A DNA stretch of 64,000 nt. Origin: Escherichia coli (GTDB lineage: Bacteria; Pseudomonadota; Gammaproteobacteria; Enterobacterales; Enterobacteriaceae). The position numbers and the translations under genes were made by a program. Location of the stretch: the NCBI RefSeq assembly GCF_036507355.1, contig NZ_AP027877.1; one strand, written 5' to 3'. Shown piece after piece: positions 45,115 through 49,267 of the stretch. Each line of letters opens with the position of its first letter. Within the stretch, counting starts at the first letter, position 1. Below the pieces are notes generated by a model. The model did not search any database. It was not told the DNA's origin and saw only the letters and a program-made list of their open reading frames with translations.

Positions 45115-46050
45115 ATGCAAGAAAATCAACAAATTACAAAGAAAGAACAATACAACCTGAACAAATTACAAAAACGCCTGCGTCGTAACGTGGGCGAAGC
45201 CATTGCTGACTTCAATATGATTGAAGAAGGCGATCGCATCATGGTTTGCCTCTCCGGGGGTAAAGACAGCTATACCATGCTGGAGATTCTGCGCAATTTG
45301 CAGCAAAGCGCGCCAATCAATTTTTCGCTGGTGGCTGTTAACCTCGATCAAAAGCAACCGGGCTTCCCGGAACACGTTCTGCCCGAGTATCTTGAAAAGC
45401 TGGGCGTTGAGTACAAGATTGTTGAAGAGAACACTTACGGTATCGTGAAAGAGAAGATTCCAGAGGGCAAAACCACTTGCTCACTGTGTTCTCGGCTACG
45501 TCGCGGTATCCTTTATCGCACCGCAACGGAACTGGGGGCGACGAAGATCGCGCTGGGTCACCATCGTGACGATATCCTGCAAACGCTGTTCTTAAATATG
45601 TTCTACGGCGGCAAGATGAAAGGTATGCCTCCGAAATTGATGAGCGATGATGGCAAACATATCGTGATTCGTCCGCTGGCCTACTGCCGCGAGAAAGATA
45701 TTCAGCGCTTTGCCGATGCAAAAGCGTTCCCGATTATTCCGTGCAACCTGTGCGGTTCACAGCCTAACCTGCAACGTCAGGTGATTGCTGACATGTTGCG
45801 TGACTGGGATAAACGTTATCCGGGGCGTATCGAGACGATGTTCAGCGCGATGCAGAATGTGGTGCCATCGCATCTGTGCGATACCAACCTGTTCGATTTT
45901 AAAGGCATTACCCACGGTTCTGAAGTGGTTAACGGGGGTGATCTGGCGTTTGATCGCGAAGAGATCCCACTACAACCGGCGGGCTGGCAGCCAGAAGAAG
46001 ATGAAAATCAGTTGGATGAGTTACGGCTGAATGTGGTTGAAGTGAAATAA
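45115..46050 (+). CDS. ttcA: tRNA 2-thiocytidine(32) synthetase
   Basis: 311-aa ORF with PP-loop (…[11 protein letters not shown]…) and Cys clusters. Confidence 0.85.
45140..45165. repeat. Prophage att core, int-proximal copy inside the 5' end of ttcA
   Basis: aaagaaagaacaatacaacctgaacaa matches 33982..34007. Confidence 0.75.
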
Positions 46051-46057
46051 CCAGGAT

Positions 46058-46135
46058 AGCGCCCGATGCGCAAGCGTATCGGGCTACTCTTATGGAGGCC
46101 GGATAAGACGCGGCCAGCGTCGCATCCGGCAATCC
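46058..46135. repeat. REP (palindromic unit) elements downstream of ttcA
   Basis: gcccgatgcgcaagcgtatcgggc and gccggataagacgcggccagcgtcgcatccggc palindromes typical of enterobacterial REP. Confidence 0.7.
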
Positions 46136-46178: not shown

Positions 46179-47552
46179 TTATTTTAATAACCGCACCCGG
46201 CACGTTTTTCCTTTAATCTTCCCGCCCTGTAACTGTTTCCATGCTTTATGAGCAACAGCCTGACGGACCGCGACATAGACATGCGCCGGATGCACGGCGA
46301 TTTTGCCAATATCTGCGCCATCAAGCCCGATATCTCCTGTCAGTGCACCTAATACATCACCCGGGCGCATTTTGGCTTTTTTCCCGCCATCGATACACAA
46401 CGTTGCCATTTCTGCTTCCAGCGTCACAATGGAACTATTAGCTGGCGGCGTTTGCCAGTTAAGTTTTATCTGCAACATGTCAGAAATGATATTGGCCCGC
46501 TGTGCTTCTTCCGGAGCACAGAAACTGATCGCCAGACCGCTATTTCCTGCACGAGCTGTACGACCGATGCGATGTACATGAACTTCAGGGTCCCACGCCA
46601 GCTCAAAGTTCACCACCAGCTCAAGCGATTTAATATCCAGACCACGCGCAGCAACATCAGTCGCGACCAGTACACGGGCGCTACCGTTAGCAAAACGTAC
46701 CAGGGTCTGATCGCGATCGCGTTGCTCCAAATCGCCGTGTAATGACAATGCACTTTGCCCTACTTCATTCAGCGCGTCGCAGACAGCCTGGCAATCTTTT
46801 TTGGTATTGCAAAACACCACGCAAGAGGATGGCTGATGCAAGCTTAATAACCGTTGCAACAGAGGAATTTTGCCTTTACTGGATGTCTCATAAAATTGTT
46901 GATCAATGGGTGGCAAAGCATCTGTTGAGTCAATTTCAATCGCCAAAGGATCGCGTTGCACTCGTCCGCTGATTGCAGCGATGGCTTCCGGCCAGGTTGC
47001 TGAAAACAGAAGCGTCTGTCGAGATGCAGGCGCAAAACGGATGACATCATCAATGGCATCGCTAAATCCCATATCCAGCATGCGGTCGGCCTCATCCATC
47101 ACCAAAGTATTCAGCGCATCCAGTGATACCGTGCCTTTTTGCAAGTGATCCAGCAAACGACCCGGCGTTGCCACGATAATATGCGGCGCATGTTGCAACG
47201 AATCACGCTGCATACCGAACGGTTGACCACCGCACAACGTCAAAATTTTGGTATTTGGCAGAAAACGCGCCAGCCGACGCAATTCACCTGCCACCTGATC
47301 CGCCAGTTCACGCGTAGGACACAGCACTAAAGCCTGGGTTTGAAATAGCGACGCATCAATTTGCTGTAACAAGCCGAGGCCAAAAGCCGCCGTTTTGCCG
47401 CTGCCGGTTTTCGCCTGCACGCGAACATCTTTTCCGGCAAGGATCGCCGGAAGCGCGGCGGCCTGCACCGGCGTCATGGTTAAATAACCCAACTCATTAA
47501 GGTTCGTGAGTTGGGCGGGAGGCAAAACATTCAGGGTAGAAAAAGCGGTCAC
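46179..47552 (-). CDS. dbpA: DEAD-box ATP-dependent RNA helicase (23S rRNA specific)
   Basis: 457-aa ORF with Walker A (AKTGSGKT), DEAD box (LVMDEADRML), SAT and HRIGRTAR motifs. Confidence 0.9.
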   Translation of the reverse strand: MTAFSTLNVLPPAQLTNLNELGYLTMTPVQAAALPAILAGKDVRVQAKTGSGKTAAFGLGLLQQIDASLFQTQALVLCPTRELADQVAGELRRLARFLPNTKILTLCGGQPFGMQRDSLQHAPHIIVATPGRLLDHLQKGTVSLDALNTLVMDEADRMLDMGFSDAIDDVIRFAPASRQTLLFSATWPEAIAAISGRVQRDPLAIEIDSTDALPPIDQQFYETSSKGKIPLLQRLLSLHQPSSCVVFCNTKKDCQAVCDALNEVGQSALSLHGDLEQRDRDQTLVRFANGSARVLVATDVAARGLDIKSLELVVNFELAWDPEVHVHRIGRTARAGNSGLAISFCAPEEAQRANIISDMLQIKLNWQTPPANSSIVTLEAEMATLCIDGGKKAKMRPGDVLGALTGDIGLDGADIGKIAVHPAHVYVAVRQAVAHKAWKQLQGGKIKGKTCRVRLLK

Positions 47553-47581
47553 AATCTATTCTCGTGGTCATCGACGCAAAG

Positions 47582-47755
47582 TTAGCAGGCGCGTATCCTC
47601 GCAGATCTACGCTCACGATGCGACAATTTAATCGGTTCTTCATCGGGTGGTGGGTCAGGCATGGGTTGCGGGCGAGGGATCGGATCGGGCACTGGAACAG
47701 GATCGCCAGGAATCGGTTCAGGGACAGGAATTTGCAAATAAATAAGTGTCGTCAT
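47582..47755 (-). CDS. Small proline-rich ORF (57 aa) immediately upstream of dbpA, unidentified
   Basis: Manual translation: MTTLIYLQIPVPEPIPGDPVPVPDPIPRPQPMPDPPPDEEPIKLSHRERRSARIRAC; GGAGGG Shine-Dalgarno about 5 nt upstream of the ATG; ends 30 nt before the dbpA start. Confidence 0.45.
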   Translation of the reverse strand: MTTLIYLQIPVPEPIPGDPVPVPDPIPRPQPMPDPPPDEEPIKLSHRERRSARIRAC

Positions 47756-47812
47756 ATTTCCCTCCGGTCATTGGGTGGACTCTTAAAGGGTAGACGCTGA
47801 TAAATAACAGGC

Positions 47813-47934
47813 AAAAAAAAGCCGACTCATCAAAGTCGGCGTCGTACGAATCAATTGTGCTATGCAGTAATTCAAAAAAGGAAGTAAGACAATATGGAGC
47901 GCAACGCCCATCGCTTGACGTTGCATTCACCTGC
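47813..47934 (-). ncRNA. fnrS: FnrS small RNA
   Basis: Minus strand reads GCAGGTGAATGCAACGTCAAGCGATGGGCGTTGCGCTCCATATTGTCTTACTTCCTTTTTTGAATTACTGCATAGCACAATTGATTCGTACGACGCCGACTTTGATGAGTCGGCTTTTTTTT, matching FnrS as I recall it, with terminal hairpin and T-run. Confidence 0.8.
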
Positions 47935-48029: not shown

Positions 48030-49034
<1,005 letters not shown>

Positions 49035-49267
49035 TTATTTTGTAGTCTAGCCTTCTGGCCCTGTTACGCAACATCTCATCACCCCATTACCCTGAAATGA
49101 TTAATAAAATTCTGTCTAAATTGAATACAAAAAGCAAAATGCTTTTCCGTATACAAACCGTGTGAAGTGTTAAATAGCGTCTATCATTATCAGAATTATC
49201 TGATCATATGACGAGGCTTTTTTGCGATCGGATAGCAACAAAAATTGATAAAAATAATGGGATCTCA

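Follow-up and report, generated by a model that had tools for sequence, protein, structure and literature searches.

The proline-rich open reading frame upstream of Escherichia coli dbpA is the small-protein gene ynaL, and its 3' third overlies the dbpA promoter

The short proline-rich open reading frame (ORF) that precedes dbpA in Escherichia coli is the already annotated and experimentally detected small protein YnaL, and the last third of its gene, codons 41-57, overlies the core promoter of dbpA. A first-pass annotation of this DNA had seen in the ORF either a translation-sensing leader peptide or an unannotated small protein to which no known name could be assigned. The small-protein half of that interpretation was right, with translation of the ORF already published (PMC6001520, PMC5331693), and the missing name is ynaL (b4743, WP_001296046.1, PF23677); the leader-peptide idea is largely unsupported. 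Our preferred reading, to which we assign a probability of roughly 60%, is that ynaL is a genuine gene whose 3' third lies over an older dbpA promoter, that the main dbpA mRNA does not carry ynaL, and that YnaL acts in trans.

The window, that is, the whole 64,000-nucleotide stretch of E. coli chromosome that was analyzed, holds the following features around the ORF:

45115-46050, plus strand: ttcA, a gene in the E. coli chromosomal window
46179..47552, minus strand: dbpA coding sequence, ATP-dependent RNA helicase DbpA, with a GTG start at 47552 (ORF list and annotation)
47553..47585, minus strand: dbpA 5'UTR 3' of the +1, with a weak Shine-Dalgarno sequence (GAGAA) before the GTG (sequence and alignment)
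47582..47755, minus strand: ynaL coding sequence, proline-rich small protein YnaL, 57 codons, coordinates including the stop (ORF list, RefSeq annotation of identical DNA, Pfam PF23677, peptide in PMC6001520)
47645..47653, minus strand: PPP, ynaL codons 35-37 (CCA CCA CCC), a predicted EF-P-dependent stall motif in a D-PPP-D context (sequence; motif class from PMC4176338)
47760..47765, minus strand: Shine-Dalgarno sequence GGAGGG of ynaL (sequence; C[CT]GGAGG is kept 4-7 nt 5' of the ATG in nearly all of the 67 species with the ORF)
47817..47934, minus strand: FnrS sRNA gene and terminator (Rfam RF01796, 134.8 bits; terminator scan; species alignment)
Further genes in the window: zntB on the minus strand and dgcM on the plus strand

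On the minus strand, the ynaL reading frame runs from an ATG at 47755 to a TAA at 47584-47582; 4 nt separate GGAGGG from the ATG, and proline accounts for 16 of the 57 residues. The 57-codon ORF, its GGAGGG Shine-Dalgarno sequence and the exact peptide given in the first-pass annotation all match the sequence, as do the claimed consecutive prolines (PPP at 47653-47645) and, taken as a sequence fact, the rare-codon tail: AGA, AGG and ATA codons all occur in the tail of ynaL. The close proximity to dbpA also stands, with a gap between the ynaL stop and the dbpA GTG (47552) of 29 nt in place of the 30 nt given there. The same description placed the ORF directly upstream of dbpA, which is right for the gene order; simple adjacency does not apply, as the dbpA promoter sits inside the ORF.

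The identity of the ORF emerges from several independent records. RefSeq labels identical DNA as ynaL, 'proline-rich small protein YnaL' (WP_001296046.1 / YP_009518775.1), and the counterpart in strain MG1655 is b4743 at 1409308-1409481, whose sequence and position between fnrS and dbpA in E. coli K-12 are the same as those of the ORF in the window. The product fits the Pfam family PF23677, 'Protein YnaL-like', over its full length (residues 1-57 on profile positions 1-57), scoring 136.9 bits where the cut-off is 27. The ORF is well beyond what chance would give: of 5426 complete E. coli genomes, 5392 carry the ynaL region at an identity of at least 95%, and it is labeled ynaL throughout the ranking. 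VanOrsdel et al. 2018 describe a 57-aa product of identical sequence, encoded between fnrS and dbpA, report ynaL as positive in a tetracycline ribosome-profiling screen and detected YnaL via a chromosomal SPA tag and immunoblot; their sole comment is that ynaL may share an operon with dbpA (PMC6001520). The locus was formerly known under the ncRNA name C0343. For C0343/ynaL, Neuhaus et al. 2017 obtained a RIBOseq ribosome coverage value (RCV) of 2.49, and their paper cites Washietl et al. 2011 (RNAcode) for the statement that the C0343 locus encodes a 57-aa protein (PMC5331693). Ribosome occupancy of the ORF, which the first-pass annotation had named as a point on which its reading would turn, is thus already on record in both footprint datasets. 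An Rfam scan (E <= 1) returned no RNA family over the ynaL ORF, its matches being FnrS and a weak naRNA4/REP match elsewhere.

How far does the gene extend beyond E. coli? We compared dbpA loci from 80 species, taking one genome per species. The same ORF lies 5' of dbpA in 67 of these 80 other Enterobacteriaceae species, with ATG and Shine-Dalgarno sequence conserved, and the genera that carry ynaL include Escherichia, Citrobacter, Salmonella, Enterobacter, Lelliottia, Leclercia, Klebsiella, Raoultella, Kosakonia, Superficieibacter and Pseudocitrobacter. The synteny fnrS-ynaL-dbpA is strict in the 67 species, and the distance from the fnrS terminator to the ynaL ATG is always 42-65 nt among them. 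Conservation of the reading frame across Enterobacteriaceae, another point raised alongside the original description, is therefore borne out, from the start signals retained in 67 species down to a dN/dS of 0.06 in the following segment:

47636..47704, minus strand: acidic (P-x)n core of YnaL, codons 18-40, DPVPVPDPIPRPQPMPDPPPDEE, a target of purifying selection at the protein level

Within this core, the first two codon positions are fixed to at least 96% and the third is free to vary, and the NG86 (Nei-Gojobori) dN/dS is 0.061 at a dS of 1.43; for comparison, dbpA codons 2-120 give a dN/dS of 0.043 at a dS of 1.38. Because third positions vary, positions 1 and 2 are fixed and dN/dS is as low as 0.061, we attribute the constraint to the protein level. 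Judged by this codon pattern, the core peptide is under strong purifying selection, and by the same measure its constraint is about equal to that of the neighboring helicase gene. The alternating prolines of the core are invariant (67/67 species), and PPP is intact in 63 of the 67. Of the core prolines, the middle one of PPP, P36, is conserved least, being present in 64/67 species, with P37 present in 66/67; in E. albertii and two Citrobacter species, PSP takes the place of PPP and leaves no consecutive prolines at all. Because P36 is the least conserved proline and the alternating prolines are kept in every species, what selection maintains seems to be the (P-x)n pattern and not a stall motif. 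The N-terminus of YnaL is variable among species and often Leu-rich, and at the other end the ORF stops early, after codon 46-47, in about a dozen species. In five Kluyvera genomes, fnrS and dbpA are kept and the proline-rich ORF is missing. Cedecea, Dryocola, Atlantibacter, Siccibacter and one Enterobacter isolate likewise have dbpA without the ORF, the first four of these carrying other genes upstream of dbpA.

Downstream of the core, the 3' part of ynaL contains two blocks that are frozen at the level of the DNA and that can be placed on the dbpA promoter as follows:

47618..47635, minus strand: block 1, CCGATTAAATTGTCGCAT, ynaL codons 41-46; positions -49..-32 of the dbpA promoter, with an A/T-rich upstream part and a -35-like TTGTCG/GTCGCA
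47587..47608, minus strand: block 2, AGATC-TGC-GAGGAT-ACGCGCCT, ynaL codons 50-57; positions about -22..-2 of the dbpA promoter
47603-47602 and 47600-47595, minus strand: parts of block 2 as read from the sequence, namely the extended -10 TG and the hexamer GAGGAT, with an 8-nt G+C-rich discriminator
47586, minus strand: dbpA +1 G, the middle base of the last ynaL codon, TGC (PMC3415461 Table S1; PMC3923258 Table S6)

Block 1 is frozen at synonymous sites too (dS 0.07), and so are codons 50-56 of block 2 (AGATCTGCGAGGATACGCGCC, 47608-47588), with a dS of 0.005. The spacing between the blocks is fixed without indels in 73 species. Block 2 is invariant in these 73 species, including those with early-stop ORFs and the ORF-less Kluyvera, and both blocks are retained in the five Kluyvera genomes that lack the ORF. 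The rare-codon tail was part of the layout that had originally suggested a translation-sensing leader peptide or a small protein; with a dS of 0.005-0.07 and retention where there is no ORF, it is promoter DNA. Because it is frozen synonymously and kept where the ORF stops early or is absent, we read the tail as a nucleotide-level element and not as a codon-usage feature. The basic C-terminal tail of YnaL is accordingly set by promoter DNA, and it is dispensable in about a dozen species. We also considered that rare codons slow the ribosome ahead of dbpA and rejected this, the AGA/AGG/ATA block being nucleotide-invariant whether translated or not.

The assignment of the blocks to the dbpA promoter rests on published transcription start site (TSS) maps. 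Kim et al. 2012 (Table S1) place the dbpA TSS at NC_000913.2 1407501, with 126 reads and a 5'UTR of 34 nt, and the -50..+1 sequence that they print for it, ACCGATTAAATTGTCGCATCGTGAGCGTAGATCTGCGAGGATACGCGCCTG, ending in GAGGATACGCGCCTG (PMC3415461), is that of blocks 1 and 2. The same position, 1407501, is listed as the dbpA TSS in Table S6 of Cho et al. 2014, with sigma binding 'D' and binding+motif 'D' (sigma70) (PMC3923258). With the TSS maps agreeing, the frozen blocks are a conserved sigma70 promoter of dbpA, in which we infer that block 1 provides the -35/UP element. Because the published TSS falls at 47586, within the last ynaL codon, the main dbpA mRNA excludes ynaL.

What remains puzzling about this promoter is its sequence. 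Across the 73 species of the E. coli clade, the site reads TGC-GAGGAT-ACGCGCC; in E. coli, TGC-GAGGAT keeps the -10 A (position 2) and T (position 6) and is followed by 8 nt and then the +1 G. For the -35 element, the clade offers TTGTCG at 20 bp or GTCGCA, the best match with 3/6, at 18 bp, and the outgroups have ATGACC at 17 bp. At the homologous site, these outgroups (Cedecea, Dryocola, Atlantibacter, Siccibacter) read ATGACC-N17-TAGAAT/TAGCAT/TAGACT, with a TG two bases 5' of the hexamer and an (A)CGCGCC discriminator, 30-45 nt 5' of the dbpA GTG, which to judge from these motifs is a near-consensus extended -10 promoter. The promoter of the E. coli clade is a poor sigma70 match yet invariant, and a plain promoter is not the full explanation for it; a generic promoter scan returned no hit at the site. 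Its geometry, with TGn and hexamer, an 8-nt G+C-rich discriminator and a start at the ninth base, is one that we take to be rrnB P1-like. A minor possibility, which we set aside, is that block 1 forms a -10 element in its own right (TAAATT/TAAAAT): the two TSS tables place no start about 7 nt 3' of it, and it occupies -49..-32 of the mapped promoter.

But what about the source of the ynaL transcript itself? Between fnrS and ynaL, the sequence offers one candidate:

47787..47814, minus strand: candidate ynaL promoter TTGCCT-N16-TACCCT, overlapping the end of the fnrS terminator

Both hexamers are present in 68 of 81 sequences, and 63 of these 68 have the 16-nt spacer. The TSS tables of PMC3415461 and PMC3923258 contain no start at this candidate, and in the text of PMC7815308 and PMC4782308 no ynaL TSS and no EF-P data were found for the locus. 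Weak 5' ends are recorded inside ynaL, at window positions 47700 and 47677, and the fnrS promoter upstream is very strong, with 55305 reads against 126 for dbpA (PMC3923258). A terminator scan assigns the fnrS terminator an 8-bp stem with 5 G-C pairs and a U8 tract, and finds no terminator-like site between ynaL and dbpA. Since ynaL has no terminator of its own, its transcripts must run on into dbpA, so that some bicistronic mRNA has to exist; we expect the bicistronic ynaL-dbpA mRNA to be a minority species.

For the protein, the available indications come from its composition and from structure prediction. AlphaFold2 (AF2), run on a 31-sequence alignment, returns an extended chain with zero secondary structure (pTM 0.22) and a pLDDT of about 90 over residues 21-40; the core is thus predicted to form an extended, polyproline-II-like rod without a globular fold. 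A PDB search revealed no relatives of YnaL, and profile searches beyond PF23677 gave only compositional TonB-like matches far under the cut-off. YnaL scores 20.8 against 315 bits for the TonB NCBIfam model and 11 against 33 bits for Pfam TonB_N. We therefore rejected membership in the TonB polyproline region, the likeness being compositional only. Our best guess, made from the composition, is that YnaL is a trans-acting interaction peptide of the polyproline-II type. YnaL also contains one strong XPPX/XPPP motif, D-PPP-D at codons 34-38, and D before PPP belongs to the strong-stalling XPPP class (PMC4176338). From this motif, it is plausible that the synthesis of YnaL is itself EF-P-dependent.

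Taken together, we propose the following picture. In core Enterobacteriaceae, ynaL is a real protein-coding gene between the fnrS terminator and dbpA, from which a strong Shine-Dalgarno sequence and an ATG direct the synthesis of a protein of about 50-60 residues, with the acidic alternating Pro-x tract as its selected part. Codons 41-57 read through the dbpA core promoter, a promoter older than ynaL. This overlap explains the frozen AGA/AGG/ATA tail, the tolerated stops after codon 46-47 and the 29-nt gap. YnaL is most likely a small interaction peptide, rich in proline, that works in trans; its yield would probably depend on EF-P via D-PPP-D, and a role as cis-acting sensor for dbpA is improbable. 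As a counterpoint to the trans model, the strict fnrS-ynaL-dbpA synteny in the 67 species would also fit a functional link to dbpA.

Such a link would be most direct if ynaL encoded a cis-acting leader or arrest peptide, with slowing at D-PPP-D, under limiting EF-P or peptidyl-transferase capacity, on transcripts begun upstream of ynaL (at a promoter of its own or by read-through from fnrS) altering Rho access, reinitiation or folding and hence dbpA expression from the bicistronic mRNA. We consider this unlikely, even though several features are in its favor. The motif falls into the strong XPPP stall class (PMC4176338), mgtL and mgtP are precedents for EF-P/proline sensing, and polyproline-dependent uncoupling with Rho termination has been described (PMC5021804). 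In addition, dbpA starts with GTG behind a weak Shine-Dalgarno sequence, the peptide is conserved over about 17 residues before PPP, and the synteny is strict. The absence of a terminator between ynaL and dbpA can be read both ways: it would let a leader reach dbpA, and together with the absence of a statistically supported alternative RNA structure it also speaks against a leader peptide. Against a leader peptide stands that the major sigma70 TSS of dbpA lies 3' of the ORF body, in the last ORF codon, leaving the main mRNA with a 34-nt leader that does not contain ynaL. A stall at PPP also fits poorly with P36 as the least conserved core proline and with three species that have PSP and no PP, and ynaL does not occur among those entries of the efp/efpL pause table of PMC11611912 that were covered. 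Depending on the species, the ynaL stop lies anywhere from 14 to 63 nt away from the dbpA GTG, a spread that argues against precise termination-reinitiation coupling. Sequestration of the dbpA start was considered in the form of a helix that RNAalifold proposes from 66 junction sequences, pairing GUCGCA (ynaL codons 44-46) with UGUGAC (dbpA start). The helix, the lone one in the consensus, fails the controls: the E. coli junction folds no better than shuffled sequences (z -0.77; 48/200 shuffles as stable), the median probability of the helix is 0.008, with values under 0.1 in 51/67 species, and an equally long complement is present in 82% of shuffled upstreams. It was rejected also because its 5' arm lies outside the main dbpA transcript. 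The same argument removes mimicry of 23S rRNA helices 90-92, a candidate suggested by GGAUACGCGCCUG, which we take to resemble 23S GGUACGCGAGCUG: this block precedes the mapped +1 and is thus outside the main mRNA. Finally, loss of the ORF in Kluyvera came without change in the start, Shine-Dalgarno sequence or promoter of dbpA. The promoter block, the GTG and the weak Shine-Dalgarno sequence are all kept in the ORF-less Kluyvera, Cedecea, Dryocola, Atlantibacter, Siccibacter and the one Enterobacter isolate. Kluyvera and six outgroup genera retain this dbpA control region without the ORF.

A link to dbpA could also operate at the level of transcription: ynaL transcription or translation across the embedded promoter might modulate dbpA initiation, either by occlusion or by uncoupled RNA polymerase, and through the adjacent fnrS this could tie anaerobiosis or translation status to dbpA. 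The layout is suggestive, as PPP (47653-47645) is located about 10 nt 5' of the promoter position -49, the ORF spans -49..+1, the very strong fnrS promoter is just upstream and the candidate ynaL promoter overlaps the fnrS terminator. However, these points are purely geometric, they leave the low dN/dS of the core unexplained, and the fnrS terminator, with its G-C-rich stem and U8 tract, is a strong one; we regard such interplay as improbable. The helicase DbpA acts on 23S rRNA, where it remodels the peptidyl-transferase region. It is conceivable, if speculative, that the Pro-x/PPP peptide serves as a gauge in cis, where EF-P/PTC-dependent slowing would set DbpA output via uncoupling, Rho or promoter occlusion, and we hold this to be a rather doubtful proposition. 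If true, 50S assembly would receive feedback from the capacity for peptide-bond formation or from anaerobiosis. A ribosome held up at PPP would have the embedded dbpA promoter about 10 nt ahead of it and the dbpA start about 100 nt ahead. Could the ORF be no gene at all, fortuitous in the ncRNA C0343 or a product of translational noise? The past ncRNA label and the weak internal 5' ends at 47700 and 47677 would be in line with this. They are set against a dN/dS of 0.06 with synonymous change saturated, a Shine-Dalgarno sequence and ATG kept in 67 species, published ribosome footprints and a tagged protein, and an ORF without any Rfam family. Going by the conservation pattern, we consider this last reading effectively refuted, with hardly any probability left to it. 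We thus return to a genuine ynaL gene, laid over the dbpA promoter and acting in trans, as the preferred reading.

For the locus, the analysis amounts in the first place to a re-identification: a supposed new leader peptide is an annotated small protein. What is added here is that the 3' third of the ORF coincides with a conserved sigma70 promoter of dbpA. The regulatory-looking tail and the tight spacing to dbpA are by-products of this arrangement, because the ORF overlaps an older promoter. Compared with the earlier literature, the codon-level split between a protein-selected core and a promoter-frozen tail is new, as is the phylogenetic distribution, including the absence from Kluyvera. Two points should be of some value to researchers working on small proteins and on ribosome biogenesis. 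One is the acidic Pro-x core of YnaL, with a constraint as strong as that on the neighboring helicase. As for dbpA, the invariance of its promoter in 73 species and its rrnB P1-like geometry together suggest that DbpA may be under growth-rate or stringent control.

Finally, we would like to place ynaL and the dbpA promoter beside systems with similar features. Leader peptides such as mgtL and mgtP (Salmonella mgtA/mgtCBR) and secM-secA share with ynaL a short co-directional ORF before a larger gene and proline codons or an EF-P-relieved polyproline motif. However, in these systems, the ORF is located inside the regulated leader RNA, whereas the dbpA TSS is found at the end of ynaL; they use alternative RNA structures or Rho sites, whereas the ynaL-dbpA junction has no supported structure or terminator; and, unlike in these systems, relatives without the ORF keep the same dbpA control region. 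At the protein level, the (EP)n/(KP)n spacer of TonB and the proline-rich antimicrobial peptides (PrAMPs) show the same alternating P-x pattern and, as for YnaL, a predicted extended chain, although the PrAMPs are cationic and the YnaL core is acidic. Promoters of the rrnB P1 type differ from the dbpA promoter in that here the -10 element, GAGGAT, is poor and the -35-like hexamer is misplaced (TTGTCG at 20 bp; GTCGCA at 18 bp). Genes whose 3' end houses the promoter of the gene that follows have the same arrangement as found here, with ynaL codons 41-57 corresponding to positions -49..+1 of the dbpA promoter.

Four further elements can be placed around ynaL, the known gene for a proline-rich small protein that lies between fnrS and dbpA.

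Elements around ynaL (window coordinates)
47787-47814, minus strand: candidate ynaL promoter, TTGCCT-N16-TACCCT, conserved and overlapping the fnrS terminator at its U-tract end
47587-47635, minus strand: dbpA promoter, TGC-GAGGAT-ACGCGCCT, with +1 at 47586
about 49027-49074, minus strand: 15-codon ORF annotated in RefSeq as 'protein YnaN' (b4773), 13 nt 5' of zntB
46097-46135: palindromic REP-like element between the convergent ttcA and dbpA

The YnaN ORF is a second tiny upstream ORF in this neighbourhood. The REP-like element scores 29.1 bits with naRNA4 (RF02564) on one strand and 25.1 bits on the other, both below the family's gathering score of 59.5.

Judged from its sequence, the TTGCCT/TACCCT pair is a candidate for the promoter of ynaL; its spacer measures 16 nt in 63 of 68 sequences, and two published TSS tables (PMC3415461, PMC3923258) contain no entry for the site. 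Two weak 5' ends have been published within ynaL itself, both on the minus strand: one at 47700 (NC_000913.2 position 1407387, 28 reads), where the now obsolete ncRNA C0343 was annotated to begin, and one at 47677 (position 1407410, 23 reads). Either RNA processing or weak promoters inside the gene could account for them.

What happens to the region when ynaL is missing can be seen in Kluyvera (L070, L072, L073, L075 and L078 among our dbpA loci, one genome per species), where fnrS adjoins dbpA. About 100 nt 5' of dbpA, the Shine-Dalgarno sequence, ATG and proline-rich codons of ynaL are all absent and only the promoter blocks remain, while TACCCT is still retained. The absence of ynaL is probably a secondary deletion, and Kluyvera would therefore represent a natural ynaL knockout.

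Natural variants of YnaL also occur. In one E. coli lineage (E69), the variant is a 46-aa in-frame deletion between the repeated PVP(E/D)PIP units, and in E. albertii and two Citrobacter species PSP replaces PPP, leaving no consecutive prolines. In E. coli STEC388 (NZ_CP041425.1), an IS1A insertion splits the zntB-ynaL-dbpA stretch. Among RefSeq E. coli genomes, 6 of 5393 places matching the region lie on plasmid-labelled records.

In the alignment of dbpA loci, the nucleotides of the dbpA promoter are unchanged across 73 species, yet its match to sigma70 is poor; the outgroup genera, which lack ynaL, carry a far better hexamer, TAGAAT, together with ATGACC at proper spacing (comparison of L070-L081). 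The discriminator is 8 nt long and G+C-rich. rrnB P1 likewise has an 8-nt G+C-rich discriminator, and this shared geometry suggests that dbpA, encoding a ribosome-assembly helicase, may be under stringent or growth-rate control.
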